Below, one piece after another: positions 4,207 through 42,841 of a stretch of 64,000 bases of DNA. The stretch is from Dehalococcoidia bacterium (GTDB lineage Bacteria; Chloroflexota; Dehalococcoidia; Lucifugimonadales; GCA-2712585), in NCBI GenBank assembly GCA_965221895.1, contig CBDCSX010000002.1:2626930-2690929 (forward strand). The letters are read 5' to 3'. How positions within the stretch are numbered: the stretch's first letter is position 1; each line of letters begins with the position of its first letter. The translations under genes and the position numbers were made by a program. The notes under the pieces were generated by a model, which was given only the letters and a program-made list of their open reading frames with translations, did no database searches and was not told the DNA's origin.

Positions 4207-5139
4207 ATGATCACCAACGGCCAAGTGAAGCAGGAAGTGAAGACGAAATACGCATTTTACCCTGGCTGCGTGTCGCGGGGCGGCTGTCCGGAACTGTATG
4301 AAGCCGTGACAAAGGTGTCGGAGAAGCTGGGGCTGGAATTGGACGATGATGTGTTGGAAAGCGCGGGGTGCACCGGCGCCGGTGTGTTGAGCAAGGAAGT
4401 ATCGGACCCCATCAACGCTCGAACCTTCGCCCTGGCCGAAAGAGCAGGTCTGCCGATAATGACCATCTGCAGCACCTGCCAAGGGATTATGATGCAGGCG
4501 AACCACCGGCTGAAGGACGAAGAATACCGGTCGATGATCAACCGCAGGTTCCTGGTTGAGGAGGGGTTGACGTACAAGGGGACGACGGACATCCGTCACA
4601 TGCTCTGGGCTATTGTGGAGGACTTTGGGCTGGACAAGCTTAAGGATCTGGTGGTTCGTCCACTGAACGGCCTGCCTGTGGCCCAGTTCTACGGGTGCTA
4701 CATGAAGCGGCCACCGGAATTGATGGTGCCGAAGGAGTTCGCCAAGACTCGGAAGACGGCCCTAGAGGACGTTATTGAGGCGCTGGGCGGGAAGGCGGTC
4801 AAGAGTTCCGGTCGTGGGAAGTGCTGCGGCTTTCCCATTCTGACGTCAAACGAGGCTAATTCCCTTTCAATGTGCGGCGACCACATATTGGACGCCAAAG
4901 CCAAGGGCGCCAGGGCTATGGTTACTCCGTGCCCGCTGTGCCACCTGGAGTTGGACGGGAAGCAGGCGGATGCCGCCGCCCACAGGGGGGAGGAGATCAA
5001 TATGCCGGTGTTCCATTTGCCTCAGCTGGTGGGGCTGGCGTTGGGTTTCAGTTCCAAGGAGATGAACTTGCAGCGGCATCTGGTGTCCACGAAGCCCATT
5101 GAAGACGAGTTGGAGTTGGGCGTTGAGGTGAAGGCGTAG
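4207..5139 (+). CDS. sdhE: CCG-domain (HdrB/SdhE-like) membrane-associated subunit
   Basis: FYPGC…CSTC and FYGC…CCG…PCPLC repeats; directly downstream of sdhB. Confidence 0.85.
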   Translation: MITNGQVKQEVKTKYAFYPGCVSRGGCPELYEAVTKVSEKLGLELDDDVLESAGCTGAGVLSKEVSDPINARTFALAERAGLPIMTICSTCQGIMMQANHRLKDEEYRSMINRRFLVEEGLTYKGTTDIRHMLWAIVEDFGLDKLKDLVVRPLNGLPVAQFYGCYMKRPPELMVPKEFAKTRKTALEDVIEALGGKAVKSSGRGKCCGFPILTSNEANSLSMCGDHILDAKAKGARAMVTPCPLCHLELDGKQADAAAHRGEEINMPVFHLPQLVGLALGFSSKEMNLQRHLVSTKPIEDELELGVEVKA

Positions 5140-5199
5140 GCTTCTGTTTCCCCAGCCGTCCGGCTGGGGAGCGGGGACGATTCCTTCAGCGGATAGCTT

Positions 5200-5673
5200 A
5201 TGGCTAAAAGGTATTGGCTCTTCAAGTCTGAACCTTCCGCCTACTCGTTCGACGATCTCGTTGAAGACGGGGTGGCCGAGTGGGATGGGGTGCGAAATTA
5301 TCAGGCGCGGAATTTGCTGCGGGATGACATCAAGGAGGGGGACGAGGCGCTGTTTTATCACAGCAGTACGAAGCCCCTGGCGGTGATTGGAACCGCCGTT
5401 GTAGTGAAGGGCGGATACCCGGATTTCACGGCGTGGGACCCGGGCTCGGAGCACCCGGACCCGAAGAGCACGCCGGAGAATCCCCTCTGGTTCATGGTTG
5501 ACATAAGGGCGACCTCTCGATTCCTCCGTCCGGTGACGCGGGACATGCTGAAGTCGGCGCCGGAATTGAAGGATATGATGGTGCTTCGCAGGGGGGCGCG
5601 GTTGTCCGTTCAGCCGGTGACGAAGGGGGAGTGGGACTCGGTGGTGCGGATGGGGACGGCAATCGCCGACTGA
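5200..5673 (+). CDS. EVE domain protein
   Basis: YWLFKSEP…WDGVRNYQARN…FYHS…RLSVQPV. Confidence 0.9.
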   Translation: MAKRYWLFKSEPSAYSFDDLVEDGVAEWDGVRNYQARNLLRDDIKEGDEALFYHSSTKPLAVIGTAVVVKGGYPDFTAWDPGSEHPDPKSTPENPLWFMVDIRATSRFLRPVTRDMLKSAPELKDMMVLRRGARLSVQPVTKGEWDSVVRMGTAIAD

Positions 5674-5710
5674 AGGGGAGACCAGTCTTGGTGGGGCCAG
5701 TAGCGACAAG

Positions 5711-5773
5711 GGGCAGGTTTGAAACCTGCCCCTACGTGTGAAGGAGCGTTACGGAGGGGTGGAGGGCGAGGGA
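5711..5773 (+). repeat. Left 63-bp direct repeat bounding the TIR cassette
   Basis: 62/63 identical to 7941-8003; begins with the REP hairpin GGGCAGGTTTGAAACCTGCCCCTAC. Confidence 0.9.
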
Positions 5774-5933
5774 AAGATGGATTCCCGCCCCCGTCTTCAC
5801 GGGGGCAGGCTCTTCGCGGGACGCACCACATAGGCGTTCTGCCCTCGCGCAATCTCAGGTCTATTCTGGAATTGGGGAAGATATGATTATCCAATGACTA
5901 CGGAGATTGAAATGAAAGGTCATCGGTAGGAAA

Positions 5934-6497
5934 ATGGCTATACGGAGGAGAATCTTCTTTAGTTTCCACTATAAGCTGGACAATTGGCGGGCGTCCGAGG
6001 TTAGGAATATGGGCGTGGTCGAGGGCAACACGCCTGTTTCCGACAATACTTGGGAGACCGTCACGCGAGGCGGCGACGCTGCTATTAAGAGGTGGATTGA
6101 CGCCCAGATGTATGGAAAGCCAAGCGTCATTGTCCTGATAGGCGGATACACGTCGAGGCGCAAGTGGGTTAGATACGAGATAGAGAAAGCTTGGAACGAT
6201 GGGAGAGGGTTGGTGGGAATCCACGTTCACAACCTTCGGGACAGCGATCGAAAGCAAACTGTGAAAGGTGCGAATCCCTTCTATAGATTCAGCGTAAACG
6301 GAAAAAGGATGTCCAGCATAGTGAACGCCTTCGACCCTCCATACAAGCGGAGCACCAGCGTATACAACAACATAGCTGCCAACATAGCCGTCTGGGTTGA
6401 GGATGCTATCCGGATCCGGAATAACTATGGAGCGGGCGTTCATCAAGTCGCAAAACGGGTTCGTCAAGAAGCTTCACCAAGGCTCGCTCAAGCCTGA
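5934..6497 (+). CDS. TIR-domain protein (Thoeris ThsB / DUF1863-like); natural stop appears lost
   Basis: RRIFFSFHY…VIVLIG…RKWVRYEI with catalytic Glu; after the expected end (IRNNY) it reads 22 extra codons into the next gene. Confidence 0.85.
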   Translation: MAIRRRIFFSFHYKLDNWRASEVRNMGVVEGNTPVSDNTWETVTRGGDAAIKRWIDAQMYGKPSVIVLIGGYTSRRKWVRYEIEKAWNDGRGLVGIHVHNLRDSDRKQTVKGANPFYRFSVNGKRMSSIVNAFDPPYKRSTSVYNNIAANIAVWVEDAIRIRNNYGAGVHQVAKRVRQEASPRLAQA

Positions 6498-6663
6498 CGA
6501 TGTTTACAAGGTGGCTCCAACGGGCATGGGGCTTCTCGCCGTAGTGCGCTGTTTGGGTTCCGTCTCCATTTGGCTGTTCTATCCCTTGGTTGCCCTCACC
6601 ATTTTCCTCGCTTGGCTGCTCATAATTCCGTCCGACGCTCCGGGCAACAAAGGGCTGTCTTGA
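6427..6663 (+). pseudogene. C-terminal fragment of a small transmembrane protein (probable TIR-system effector)
   Basis: ERAF…CLGSVSIWLFYPLVALTIFLAWLLII hydrophobic helix; resembles from memory the C-half of TM proteins encoded beside DUF1863 TIRs; N-half absent. Confidence 0.5.
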
Positions 6664-7230
6664 CCGTAAAAAAAGATACCCAGACACAAGGTGTTCATTA
6701 GCTGCCACGATGAAGATCGCGAATACAAGAGACGCTTCCGCCAGATGATGGGGGATTCGGTTGTGGACGTTTCGGTGGACGAAGATGACATTGACGACAC
6801 CGGGATGGCAACGGAGACGATTAGTCGGGAGATACGCGACGAGTTCATTCGTCAGTCTTCCGTAACCATAGTACTCCTAGGCCCATGCACTTGGCAGCGA
6901 ATGCACGTGGACTTCGAGATTCATTTCAGTATTCGAGAAACCGACTTCAACCGAAGGTGCGGTCTTTTGGGCATCTTGTTGCCTGAACACCCGGACTACG
7001 GATCGGAAGAATACTGCGATAGATTGATACCTGCCAGACTCCCGGATAACATCGGTGGTAAAAACGCGTACGCAGAGCTTTACGATTGGCCACGGAAGCA
7101 TCCGGGAAGACGAGACAAAGTTCGTCAATGGATAGAAGAAGCGTTCAGTCGGCGAATGAAGATTGTCCCTGACAGCGGCAGGCCGTTGTTGCAAGGTAAT
7201 ATAGGTGGCAGTTGTTTAGATGGGTGGTAG
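6660..7230 (+). CDS. Second TIR-domain protein (DUF1863-like); 5' end frameshifted at an A7 tract or uses an alternative start
   Basis: RHKVFISCH…VTIVLLGPCTWQRMHVDFEI…RCGLLGILLP; TTG at 6660 overlaps the upstream TGA but is one base out of frame across A7 (6668-6674); main ORF 6691-7230. Confidence 0.8.
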
Positions 7231-7256
7231 CGTAAGCCTATGCAACGGGCGTTGCC

Positions 7257-7913
7257 AAATACAAGCCGTACTCCGCCTACAAGCCCTCCAGCGTTCCTTG
7301 GCTGGGCGAGGTGCCGTTCCATTGCGAGGTGAAGTGGCTCAAGGGTCACGTAACAAACGTTATTGACCTCAGTAGACCTCCACGCCACGACGATATTTCC
7401 CTTGCCCTTGAGCATGTCGAAAGCTGGACGGGGAGGTTCACCGCTGCTGGCAATGGGGTTGGATTCGATAGCCAGATGAAACGGTTTGGGGATGGAGACG
7501 TACTCTTCGGCAAGTTGAGGCCCTACCTGGCTAAAGATACTCGACCATGCCGGAATGGGCTTTGCGTAGGCGAATTTTGGTGCTCCGCCGCCGCAATAGG
7601 AATCTGTCACTAGGGTTTCTTAAGCAGTTTCTACGTTCCAAACCAGCTATTCATGTAATTGATGCATCGACTTTTGGGGACCAAATGCCCCGTGCGGGTT
7701 GGAAATTCATCGGTACATACGCCTCATCTCCCGCCACTTGCTGAGCAGACCGCCATTGTGGGGTACCTGGACAAGGCTACCGCTGCCATCGTCCGAGCCC
7801 GCCGCCAAATCGAATTTCGACAGGATTACCGAACCTGCCTCATCTCCGACGTGGTCACGGGTAAGTTGTACGTTCGGCAGGCGATGGTTGATTCTTCGTT
7901 GAGTTCGGAATGA
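7257..7913 (+). pseudogene. hsdS: Type I restriction-modification specificity subunit remnant, frameshifted, about half length
   Basis: KPYSAYKPSSVPWLGEVP, GDVLFGKLRPYL, PPLAEQTAIV..YLD, LISDVVTGK spread over different frames; no start codon. Confidence 0.8.
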
Positions 7914-7940
7914 CGTGCAACGATAGAATGTCTGGGGAGA

Positions 7941-8003
7941 GGGCAGGTTTGAAACCTGCCCCTACGTGTGAAAGAGCGTTACGGAGGGGTGGAGGGCGAG
8001 GGA
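7941..8003 (+). repeat. Right 63-bp direct repeat bounding the TIR cassette
   Basis: 62/63 identical to 5711-5773. Confidence 0.9.
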
Positions 8004-8099
8004 GGATTTCCGCCCCCGCAGGTGCGAGAATGGTAGAGGGGTTGGGGAGATGGATTCCAGTCTTCGTCTTCATGGGGGCAGGCTCTATGAGGGATGCCC

Positions 8100-9518
8100 C
8101 TACGTGGGTGGTTTGGGGGGGCGGTTCCTTCCTAAGTCGTCCAGCTTCTGACGAAGGAGGTTGCGGCGTTGCCTGGGGGTAAGTCGTCTCCAGAACCTTG
8201 TGCTGGGGCCGGAGGGTGGTTTGGTGAATACGCCGGGCTCCTGTGGTGATGGGGTTGTTGGGCTGGGCGCATCGTCGGGAGATTCCTCCACTCTTTCTAT
8301 GGGCCGACGCAAGGCTGGCATGAAGATGGCTATGAGCAGGAGAAGGACCAGCCCCCCTATCGCGTTGGCGGTGAGGGCGACGCTCATGCCGAAGATGGAC
8401 GCGAGTGCGCCAATTTCGACGTTGCCCATCTGACCGGTGCTGATGGCCAAACCCTGGGCGCCAAATACGCGGCTGTGGAAGTTGGTTGGGCTGCTGGTGA
8501 GGAGGATGCCGCTCTGCATTGTGGAGAAACCGCACTGGAAGATGCCCATGGCGATGAGGATGAAGAAGGAGAGGAGGAACCAGGGGGAAAGGGCGAATGC
8601 GAGGAGGAAGATGGCCACGCCGAGGCAGCCGCCCAGGAAGATTCTGCCGCTGATTTTGATGCGGCTTGCCAGCAATCCGATGAGGAGGGAGCCGAAAACG
8701 AAGCCTATGCCGTCGGCGGCGGCCAGGAGGCCCATGAGGCCAGCGCCGACGTGTAGGTGATCGGCGGCAATGACGGGGATGAATAGGTGGTATTGGAATA
8801 ATACGTTCATAACCACACTGGCGGTCAGCACGCCGGCAATGGCAGGGGTGGAATAAGCATATTTCAGTCCTTCGCCGATGCTTTTGATGACGGGACGGCG
8901 GGCAAGGGACGTAACCACGGGAGGGGTCTTCAGCAGGAATATGCAGACGAAGCCAAAAAGGTAGAGGCCGGTCAGGAGAACGTAGACGCTGATGGCGGTG
9001 CCCGATATCAGGAGGAGGACTCCAATGACGAGGGGGCCGACGATTCTGCCGGCGCTGAATCCCAACTGCTCCAAGGAGATGGCCTGCACGAGGTTGTCTT
9101 GGCCGACAACGTGGAACATGAGGGCCCTGCGGCTGGTGTTGTCGAAGGCCCGGCAGGCCCCTCGGATGGCGGCGGCAATGAAAAGGAAGTAGGGATCGAC
9201 GGACCCAATTAGGAGGATGACCAGCACACTAGCGACAACAGCCAAGCTGACTAGGTTGGAGGCCATGATGATGTGTCGCCGGTCCTTCCGGTCGCCGATG
9301 GCACCGGCGAGGAGGGTGAAGGCGAACATGGAGACGGTGTGGCTGAGGCCCAGCAGAGCCACCTGCCACGGAGAGCCGGTGAGCTGATGGATGAACCAAC
9401 CCATGACGAGGAGCTCGGACATGTCTCCGCTGGTGGAGATGCTGCCGTTGCTCAATAGAAACTGGAAGTTCCGGTTTCTTATGAGGTGGAAGAGGGGTTT
9501 TTTGATTCTGGGACGCAC
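8100..9518 (-). CDS. MFS transporter (DHA3/H+ antiporter-like)
   Basis: About 12 hydrophobic segments, GAIGDRKDRR motif A; Pro-rich tail running into the REP region. Confidence 0.9.
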   Translation of the reverse strand: MRPRIKKPLFHLIRNRNFQFLLSNGSISTSGDMSELLVMGWFIHQLTGSPWQVALLGLSHTVSMFAFTLLAGAIGDRKDRRHIIMASNLVSLAVVASVLVILLIGSVDPYFLFIAAAIRGACRAFDNTSRRALMFHVVGQDNLVQAISLEQLGFSAGRIVGPLVIGVLLLISGTAISVYVLLTGLYLFGFVCIFLLKTPPVVTSLARRPVIKSIGEGLKYAYSTPAIAGVLTASVVMNVLFQYHLFIPVIAADHLHVGAGLMGLLAAADGIGFVFGSLLIGLLASRIKISGRIFLGGCLGVAIFLLAFALSPWFLLSFFILIAMGIFQCGFSTMQSGILLTSSPTNFHSRVFGAQGLAISTGQMGNVEIGALASIFGMSVALTANAIGGLVLLLLIAIFMPALRRPIERVEESPDDAPSPTTPSPQEPGVFTKPPSGPSTRFWRRLTPRQRRNLLRQKLDDLGRNRPPKPPT

Positions 9519-9852
9519 GGTTTCTCGTTGGGACGGAGGATGTGGGGCGTGGGTAGAACGTGATAGCTATACATTGTATTGTGATGTAGAGGGGAAACCA
9601 TAGGGTTGGGGCTGCGGACTTGGGCGGGATGGGGGCTGGTGTGGTGGGCGACCACGAGGGAGGGCAGGTTTGAAACCTGCCCCTACGGGCGATATGACGG
9701 ATTGTTTCCGAGGCTGGCGCCACCCTACGGGTTGTTAGCAAGGTGGGTTTCAACAGCATGGAGACAGTCTATTTTCAGAGTAATGATATTTGGCACGTCC
9801 GGGAATGATGGAATCGGGTTGACCTTGTGGGCCTACGTAGAGGGTGGAGACG

Positions 9853-14129: not shown

Positions 14130-14650
14130 GATTTGGGGAGGACTGGGGAGGGCTGGATTCTCGCCTTCGCAGGAATAACGGAGGGGAGAATCGTCCTTAC
14201 GGGAGAGAATGTTGTCGGACACGGGGTTCATCCCCATACCAACCTTCCCCCCTTGAGGGGGAGGGGATTTGTTGGCGTGCTACTGCAACGAGATTCCTCG
14301 GCTGCGCTTCGCTGCGTTCGAAATGACATTTGGGTAGAGGGTCAAGACGGGCGACCACAAGGAGCCTGTTTCATAAGTCCTCACCCATGATATATGCCAA
14401 GCATTTTAAGACGCTTTTCGACGACTTCCCTAGGGAGAGCATGGAATATGGCCCCAAGGTTCGTCCTTTCTACGAAAGCAGGAATCCAGAAGGCCCAATT
14501 CTCGGAGAGATCCGACTTATGAAACATGCTCCAAGGGTCGCCCCTACGAGGGAAGGTGGCAGGTGGCAGGTGGTGTCCATGTATCGGAAGAGGGCGCCCA
14601 CGAGGGACGCCCCGACGGGGGCAAGGGCAGGTTTGAAACCTGCCTCTACG
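14130..14650. repeat. REP-like cluster
   Basis: Several hairpin types, including GGGCAGGTTTGAAACCTGCC and GATTCTCGCCTTCGCAGGAAT. Confidence 0.85.
14362..14531. mobile_element. MITE family 1, type A (170 bp)
   Basis: TIRs; TSD CAAG; empty site GGGCGACCACAAGGGTCGCCCCTAC. Confidence 0.92.
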
Positions 14651-24306: not shown

Positions 24307-24645
24307 TGAAACCTGCCCCTACGGAGAAGGGGTTGAGTGTAGGGGGTGTGGGGAAGATGGATTCCCGCCCCCGTCTTCACGGGGGCAGGATATTCGCGGG
24401 AAAAACGGAGGGAGGGATGGGTCCCCGCATCCGCGAGGACAACGGAAGGGGGAGGGCGGTTCGCGAACCGCCCCTACGGTTGGTCGGTAGTTGGGAAGTT
24501 TGGAGGGCAAGGGCGGGTTTGAAACCTGCCCCTACGGAGAAGGGGTTGAGTGTAGGGGGTGTGGTAAAGATGGATTCAAGCCCCCGTCTTCACGGGGGTA
24601 GGCTGTTCGCGGGAACAGCGGAGGGAGGGATGGGTCCCCGCATCC

Positions 24646-42721: not shown

Positions 42722-42841
42722 TGAAGGGGGATATTGAATGCACACCTGCAGTCCTTCTATGACACAGGGCAGGTTTGAAACCTGCCCCTACCTATGTGAC
42801 GTGGATTGACCGCAATGGGCCAAGATTCTGACTTAATTGGG

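Follow-up and report, generated by a model that had tools for sequence, protein, structure and literature searches.

A probable type V Thoeris operon, thsB1 - thsF - thsB2, decayed to a pseudogene remnant in an uncultured Dehalococcoidia genome

Gene layout of the cassette and a 249-bp deletion

The window, the 64,000-nucleotide stretch of a Dehalococcoidia bacterium genome analysed here (GenBank assembly GCA_965221895.1, contig CBDCSX010000002.1, positions 2,626,930 to 2,690,929 of the forward strand), contains a cassette of two TIR-domain genes around a short membrane open reading frame (ORF). This locus is very probably a pseudogenised type V Thoeris operon with the gene order thsB1 - thsF - thsB2 (Table 1). 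Both TIR proteins match the Pfam family PF08937 ThsB_TIR, formerly DUF1863 (7.9e-24 for TIR1 and 3.3e-14 for TIR2), and both keep the catalytic-type glutamate (VRYEI in TIR1, VDFEI in TIR2), which confirms what a reading of the sequence without database searches (the sequence-only reading) had described, namely two TIR genes with a catalytic Glu flanking a short membrane ORF. TIR1 also matches the PADLOC models ThsB (3.7e-69) and PDC-M50B (1.2e-57). The PADLOC profile is covered whole by TIR1 residues 4-165 of 187, leaving an unmatched tail of 22 residues. The middle fragment, of 78 or 88 aa depending on the start, has no Pfam match and no PADLOC match at E<=1; it matches positions 79-144 of 146 in a hidden Markov model (HMM) of its own family (E 3e-22).

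The intact arrangement is seen in three relatives that share the window's flanks (L001, L002 and L003), all of which have a TIR gene (172 aa), a gene of 145/146 aa and a second TIR gene (163/192 aa). Upstream, the common flank consists of fumarate reductase/succinate dehydrogenase-type genes plus an EVE-domain gene; downstream it is a major facilitator superfamily (MFS) transporter. Homologues of TIR1 measure 164-172 aa, with ...IRNNYGG* as the C-terminus of the closest ones; in the window, the bases AAT AAC TAT GGA GCG are located at 6420-6434. DNA alignment of the window with L001 gives 90 % identity up to 6432 and 92 % again from 6682, and exactly 249 bp are absent from the window relative to both L001 and L002. 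The break is not due to chance, because the flanks are 90-94 % identical to the relatives. The pentamer TGGAG occurs in one copy in the window, where the intact relatives have two copies at a distance of 249 bp, with ends at 6514 (left copy) and 6763 (right copy) in L001 as well as in L002. Its two intact contexts are the end of thsB1 (TATGGAG|GGTGA) and codons 79-80 of the middle gene (GTTGGAG|CGAGCG). Alignment with the copy in G010, a genome of the same genus, places the junction at the same point.

The deletion is real at the assembly level. It removed the thsB1 stop codon together with the last Gly codon, the spacer and thsF codons 1-79, so the proposal of the sequence-only reading that a deletion had taken the TIR1 stop and the effector N-terminus is borne out by the 249 bp missing relative to L001 and L002. 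As a result of this loss, ThsB1 bears a nonsense tail of 22 residues: in its last 22 codons (6432-6497, AGVHQVAKRVRQEASPRLAQA), thsF is read out of frame. The junction also creates, by chance, an ATG-GAG in frame with the remaining 3' part of thsF.

Table 1. Coordinates of the features at the locus and of related elements; positions refer to the window unless another sequence is named (G000, the window's own genome).
Feature	Position	Strand	Remarks
thsB1 (TIR1)	5934-6497	+	187 aa; contains KWVRYEIEKAW; TIR core 5934-6428 looks intact
Membrane ORF, thsF remnant	6427-6663	+	ATG 6427, stop 6663; 78 aa; codons 80 to end
Same ORF, longer form	6397-6663	+	88 aa; overlaps TIR1 in a frame other than that of TIR1
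thsB2 (TIR2) body	6691-7230	+	179 aa from GTG; contains MHVDFEIHF; C-terminus full length
Deletion junction	6428-6432	+	TGGAG microhomology, 5 nt
Displaced thsB2 5' end	6660-6690	+	TTG 6660; A7 run 6668-6674
hsdS remnant	7233-7913	+	half-size Type I specificity subunit; PADLOC Specificity_I 2.9e-12 and 8e-13
Left REP-like repeat	5711-5827	+	core GGGCAGGTTTGAAACCTGCCCCTAC; direct repeat families D1, D2
Right REP-like repeat	7941-8100	+	partner copy of the 5711-5827 repeat
REP-like core copies	5711-5735, 7941-7965, 9662-9686, 14625-14649, 24511-24535, 42767-42791	+	six copies in the window
EVE-domain gene	5200-5673		PF01878, 4.5e-51
Own-genome paralogous operons (L024, L025, L026)	G000:C2:2177857-2179038, 822996-824193, 682683-683416		three, apparently intact
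Further own-genome ThsB_TIR genes	G000 C2:2774743-2775648, C2:2170416-2170703, C1:449681-449929
thsB2 of L001	L001:6976-7467		ends ...EEAFSR
ORF in place of the hsdS remnant in L002	L002:7569-8252		227 aa
IS5-like element of G010	L132 (G010:C1:879500-888500), about 4287-5498 in reverse-complement coordinates	-	330-aa transposase

The lost effector and its identity as ThsF

The protein that the window has lost can be described from its intact orthologues. Those of L001 and L002 match all four PADLOC models of PDC-M50A (best 1.4e-26 and 2.4e-28) and do not match any Pfam family at E<=1. Clustering at 50 % gives 3,120 representatives of this large family (E<=1e-3), nearly all of 135-165 aa, and the homologues listed bear no functional annotation in their sources, being at most named 'hypothetical protein'. 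An alignment of 101 sequences served as the basis for the AlphaFold2 model and for the hhalign comparison with ThsF described below. The AlphaFold2 model of the intact protein (pLDDT 96.3, pTM 0.86) predicts a helix at 12-53 that combines an amphipathic N-terminal part with the first transmembrane segment (TM1), a helix at 56-96 comprising TM2 and a cytoplasmic extension, a short helix at 114-120 and a last helix at 124-144 corresponding to TM3. A Foldseek search of this model against the PDB returned no relative of solved structure (best E 1.5).

Residues R27, K36 and E80 are invariant in the family alignment, and of the 16 positions that are invariant or nearly so, 12 precede residue 80, that is, they fall in the deleted part. 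The complete three-helix effector is thus missing from the window, where the remnant keeps no more than TM3 and the cytoplasmic linker; without the conserved N-terminal helix, TM1 and TM2, the effector encoded there cannot work. The window thsF is a pseudogene of the family, a non-working member.

Thoeris types V-XI have recently been defined, type V being a TIR protein combined with a protein of three membrane-spanning helices that was labelled DUF2270 and renamed ThsF (Yirmiya et al., bioRxiv 10.64898/2025.12.03.692087). The model above agrees with this through its helices 12-53, 56-96 and 124-144. Systems of Bacillus sp. 1NLA3E and B. thuringiensis DAR 81934 served to validate type V, and in Table S1 of the same work the label 'DUF2270 - Type V' is given to IMG 2620551307 and 2620551309 (Yirmiya et al., bioRxiv 10.64898/2025.12.03.692087). 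A single gene separates these two; similarity to TIR1 of the window is about 75 % for the first, and the second belongs to the TIR2 class. A protein 93 % identical to IMG 2620551307 (P0063) is encoded in the locus hsdM-AbiEi-AbiEii-TIR164-157aa-TIR191-hsdS-hsdR, in which the 157-aa gene is PDC-M50A.

The connection to a validated effector is direct. The TIR of B. thuringiensis DAR 81934 (P0391) matches its entry in Table S1 at 100 % identity, and the next gene encodes a 141-aa effector (P0511). This ThsF matches PDC-M50A at 1.8e-48, aligns with the 101-sequence family alignment over 123 columns (hhalign probability 99.4 %, E 1.8e-21) and shares 44 % identity over 70 aa with the L001 protein (BLASTP, E 1e-15). 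PDC-M50A and ThsF are, as judged from these alignments, one family. The intact orthologues of the window gene match PDC-M50A and are homologous to ThsF, and the window cassette is therefore a relative of type V Thoeris. A literature search for 'PDC-M50' found no paper. When the B. thuringiensis type V TIR was compared with plasmids by tblastn, the best two hits (B. cereus and Priestia) were in other Thoeris contexts without a ThsF gene.

The sequence-only reading had thus recognised a Thoeris-like operon of TIR, membrane effector and TIR, which is supported, and had correctly noted that neither a SIR2-SLOG nor a TM-Macro effector domain is seen, for which Pfam and PADLOC give no matches. Its description of the effector as unrecognised does not hold, given that the intact protein is PDC-M50A and homologous to the validated ThsF. 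In the PADLOC run that it proposed as a check, TIR1 is matched (ThsB, PDC-M50B), the remnant is not, and only the intact orthologues reach PDC-M50A. Its further suggestion, that the intact ancestor represents a distinct and so far unrecognised type of TIR signalling with a small membrane effector, is highly improbable. The intact effector indeed has no Pfam family at E<=1, its homologues lack annotation, no solved structure resembles it and the window fragment alone has no PADLOC match, all of which would fit a new type; against this stand the PDC-M50A identity of the intact protein, the probability of 99.4 % for homology to ThsF and a TIR-X-TIR layout, in a near-identical TIR pair, that Table S1 already assigns to type V (Yirmiya et al., bioRxiv 10.64898/2025.12.03.692087). 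The type of system is already known, being catalogued in PADLOC (PDC-M50) and validated as type V Thoeris, and so the locus carries little weight as a discovery.

Other Thoeris types were considered and rejected. A SLATT-like effector, as in type VII, is not indicated, since 1 of the 101 family members has a weak SLATT_6 match (E 0.0077). Type II is rejected because neither the remnant nor the intact orthologues have a Macro or ThsA match in Pfam or PADLOC. For type I there is no SIR2-SLOG match in these databases, and the neighbours are the EVE gene upstream and the hsdS remnant and MFS transporter downstream. Profile-profile likeness to DUF2270 was likewise rejected as proof of membership in that family: hhalign against 14 canonical DUF2270 proteins of the same phylum gives E 0.07 and aligns the TM1-TM2 hairpin only.

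Gene neighbourhoods and recurrent decay

Neighbourhoods were surveyed at 80 Dehalococcoidia/Chloroflexota loci found with a 17-sequence alignment. A TIR gene adjoins thsF in 77 of them, in agreement with the expectation that homologues of the membrane fragment would be TIR-associated, and does so on both sides in about 35. The most frequent layouts are thsF followed by the TIR2 class (28/80), a short TIR followed by thsF and TIR2 (17/80), TIR1-thsF-TIR2 as in the window (14/80) and a short TIR followed by thsF (8/80). The TIR2 class lies directly downstream of thsF in about 63 of the 80 loci; on this side the partner is constant, and the TIR upstream of thsF differs between loci. Nearly all relatives belong to uncultured Dehalococcoidia/Chloroflexota, including some sponge metagenome bins. 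The window's own genome is a metagenome assembly of 3.6 Mb in 2 contigs.

This genome holds three paralogous operons that appear intact (Table 1). Two of them are located between hsdM and hsdS, one after an AbiEi/AbiEii pair and the other followed by a 315-aa gene without an assigned function; the remaining one lies beside a PIN-family toxin-antitoxin pair. The nesting of paralogous operons between hsdM and hsdS accounts for the hsdS remnant that follows thsB2 in the window. In all, the genome has 11 PF08937 matches. The further ThsB_TIR genes listed in Table 1 include an adjacent pair, beside which no ThsF-family gene was detected.

Around the cassette, the EVE-domain gene lies directly upstream and keeps its position in all syntenic relatives, and it is therefore regarded as part of the flank and not of the cassette. 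The core of the REP-like element, which is palindromic (translated 'GRFETCPY'), occurs 6 times on the + strand of the window against 0 expected. The two repeat copies that bracket the cassette share 63 nt at 98 % identity and 53 nt at 81 % (families D1 and D2), and the element also flanks the syntenic cassettes of L001, L002 and G010. Within the bracketed 2.3 kb the G+C content is 52-54 %, versus 58-62 % around it. Rfam has no match over positions 5000-9000 of the window, and promoters and terminators were predicted at counts no higher than chance.

The 249-bp deletion is not the only lesion. Upstream of the GTG at 6691, no start codon lies in frame with the thsB2 body. The TTG at 6660, which overlaps the stop of thsF, is one base out of frame with that body because of the A7 run. 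In G010 this run is A6 and the sequence reads TTG ACC GTA AAA AAG ATA CCC..., translated MTVKKIPRHKVF; this start of the G010 thsB2 matches the start of the L002 protein, MTANIPRHKVF. The A7 run may reflect either a genuine frameshift or a sequencing error in the homopolymer. The hsdS remnant has no start codon and contains in-frame stops at 7611 and 7656, with neither hsdM nor hsdR nearby; it aligns by tblastn to the HsdS of L046 and of L024, and hsdS is decayed in L001 as well.

The relatives have lesions of their own. The syntenic thsF of G010 contains a 1212-bp IS5-like insertion, two frameshifts and the substitution R27W, and was thus inactivated independently of the window copy. The inserted element encodes a transposase (Table 1), has the inverted repeats GGAACCTCTGAACA/TGTTCAGAGTGTTCC and sits at the insertion site CTAG. 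In L001, the closest relative, whose TIR1 is 90 % identical to that of the window, thsF is intact and thsB2 lacks the last ~25-30 residues present in all other copies. Decay at this site is recurrent in the genus. An alignment of the window TIR2 with 7 orthologues and paralogues further shows that a motif (window 6891-6920) that is WQRKHVDWEI in five other sequences is changed to WQRMHVD(F/L)EI in the window, G010 and L001, which could mean relaxed constraint or altered activity in the syntenic lineage. In L002, an ORF without Pfam or PADLOC match is found where the hsdS remnant would be, and the 3' half of thsF and thsB2 are only ~50 % identical to those of the window. This divergence points to replacement of the cassette by recombination.

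The cassette is very probably a dead remnant of a defence island that was once inside a Type I restriction-modification (R-M) operon.

Mechanism, doubts and comparison with known systems

In the type V system of B. thuringiensis the signal is 3' cyclic ADP-ribose (3'cADPR), which is made only upon infection, and added 3'cADPR is toxic only to cells with the system; for ThsF, the prediction is a homo-oligomeric ring in which the pockets between protomers are positively charged (Yirmiya et al., bioRxiv 10.64898/2025.12.03.692087). On this model, infection would trigger the ThsB TIR to convert NAD+ into a cyclic ADP-ribose isomer (3'cADPR in the validated case), the signal would bind the small three-helix membrane protein ThsF, and the predicted ring-shaped oligomer would breach the membrane and abort infection. 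By inference from the B. thuringiensis system, one or both ThsB proteins of the intact ancestor would have responded to infection with a cADPR-type signal, by which ThsF was opened or assembled in the membrane, so that infection was aborted. The Dehalococcoidia loci share with that system the effector family, the TIR linkage and, in the model, the three-helix membrane architecture. In the window, after the deletion between the TGGAG pentamers, at most the last third of ThsF would be made, and one extra A would separate thsB2 from its TTG start.

The roles could be imagined in reverse, with the TIRs as NAD+-depleting effectors and the membrane protein as sensor or anchor, an arrangement that the limitations section of the type V paper allows for unverified configurations (Yirmiya et al., bioRxiv 10.64898/2025.12.03.692087). 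However, the infection-dependent synthesis of 3'cADPR by the validated type V TIR and the toxicity of added 3'cADPR solely in the presence of the system speak against it, and TIRs of the ThsB class (PF08937) are signal producers in every tested Thoeris type. This reversal therefore seems most doubtful.

Selection on the TIR genes bears on whether the remnant is still in use. Pairwise ratios of nonsynonymous to synonymous substitution rates (dN/dS) against relatives are 0.25-0.41 for thsB1 and 0.19-0.28 for thsB2, and by this measure the TIRs were under constraint for most of their divergence. The thsF stub is 97.4 % identical to the 3' half of the G010 copy, with a dN/dS of 0.67 on six differences, too few to conclude from. 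The ThsB sensors could signal in trans to the three paralogous ThsF proteins, or the 78-aa stub could modulate those effectors, as would fit the low ratios of thsB1 and thsB2 (0.19-0.41), the three intact thsF paralogues in the same genome and the in-frame ATG that the junction made for the stub. This is nevertheless unlikely: ratios over 6-12 % divergence mostly date from before the lesions, thsB2 has lost its start, the residues by its catalytic Glu deviate (WQRKHVDWEI to WQRMHVDFEI), and the stub lacks 12 of the 16 conserved positions and has the high ratio against G010, albeit on those six differences. Equally slight is the chance that the orphan ThsB pair is kept to feed the three paralogous ThsF in trans, so that Thoeris operons form a shared network of sensors and effectors. 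If such a network existed, the effector would have been lost first and repeatedly (by deletion here and by an insertion sequence in the sister genome), perhaps as the costly part.

Several points weigh against reading the locus as a dead type V operon. The TIR ratios of 0.2-0.4 may mean that both TIR genes were functional until recently, or still are. The DUF2270 label of type V rests on remote similarity that HMMER does not reproduce. B. thuringiensis ThsF itself has no match to Pfam DUF2270 (PF10028); neither do the L001 and L002 orthologues at E<=1, the own-genome paralogues at E<=10, or the whole of the window's genome in a six-frame search at E<=10. Weak PF10028 matches occur in 12 of the 101 family members (best E 1.2e-3). 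The molecule 3'cADPR failed to activate a second variant of type V; 2'cADPR was the product of the TIR2-cluster members tested in type VI, and no known signal came from the TIR1-cluster members tested in type XI (Yirmiya et al., bioRxiv 10.64898/2025.12.03.692087). This clade's TIRs fall in clusters other than those of the validated type V TIRs, and a signal and an anti-phage activity are attributed to them by analogy.

The deletion, and the A7 run especially, could moreover be artefacts of metagenome assembly or consensus calling, the organism having an intact thsF and the 249-bp gap stemming from the assembly or polishing of a mixed-strain bin. The genome was assembled from a metagenome into 2 contigs, long-read assemblies commonly contain errors of homopolymer length, and the locus is mosaic, with a thsF remnant 97 % identical to G010 and a thsB1 only 88 % identical. 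For the deletion such an origin is improbable, and for the A-run it is less so. A clean loss between two 5-nt direct repeats is typical of a real deletion by replication slippage or microhomology and not of a polishing error, independent real lesions occur at the same locus in relatives (the G010 insertion, the L001 truncation), and the adjacent hsdS is decayed too, in the window and in L001. A pseudogenised type V operon is thus preferred.

What is of use here concerns annotation and defence loss. The direct comparison shows that PDC-M50A is the ThsF family and that the Pfam model fails to reproduce 'DUF2270', which matters for annotation pipelines. The dual-TIR form thsB-thsF-thsB, with two TIR classes, is common in Dehalococcoidia and often lies between hsdM and hsdS. 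This form is not discussed in the type V paper (Yirmiya et al., bioRxiv 10.64898/2025.12.03.692087), although the dual-TIR layout and the R-M nesting are variants already visible in published tables. The deletion, the IS insertion and the truncation make up a natural decay series at one syntenic locus within a genus that could serve studies of defence loss.

Compared with validated type V Thoeris, the window shares the effector family and the arrangement in which a ThsB-type TIR adjoins a three-TM protein of ~140-150 aa. In contrast to it, the effector of the window is truncated, the host is a Dehalococcoidia bacterium and the effector is flanked by two different TIR genes instead of the one TIR of the validated operons. 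The TIRs also belong to clusters 2661146773 and 2741407742, other than those of the validated TIRs, and the signal may differ. PADLOC PDC-M50 (PADLOC-DB v2.0.0, 2023) is similar in that TIR1 matches PDC-M50B and the intact orthologues match PDC-M50A. The window remnant, however, falls below every PDC-M50A model (E<=1), so that PADLOC most likely would not call the system, and PDC-M50 consists of two genes, whereas the window has a second, different TIR after the effector.

Type II Thoeris (ThsB with a TM-Macro effector, ThsA/ThsC) likewise combines a TIR sensor with a membrane-spanning effector, presumably for abortive infection, but the intact effector here is only 145 aa long, has no Macro domain and shows no similarity to the PADLOC ThsA models. 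DUF2270 proteins (PF10028) resemble the family in layout, with a helix at the N-terminus, a hairpin of TM segments and, after TM2, a conserved acidic/aromatic motif; canonical members differ in covering 184 positions of the profile and, in the loci examined, in having no link to TIR genes. Finally, the cassette recalls other defence cassettes in Type I R-M operons (AbiE, PrrC-type): in intact relatives and in two own-genome paralogues, thsB-thsF-thsB is found between hsdM and hsdS with or without AbiEi/AbiEii. The window differs in that no hsdM or hsdR is left there, and the cassette now lies between REP-like repeats beside housekeeping genes.

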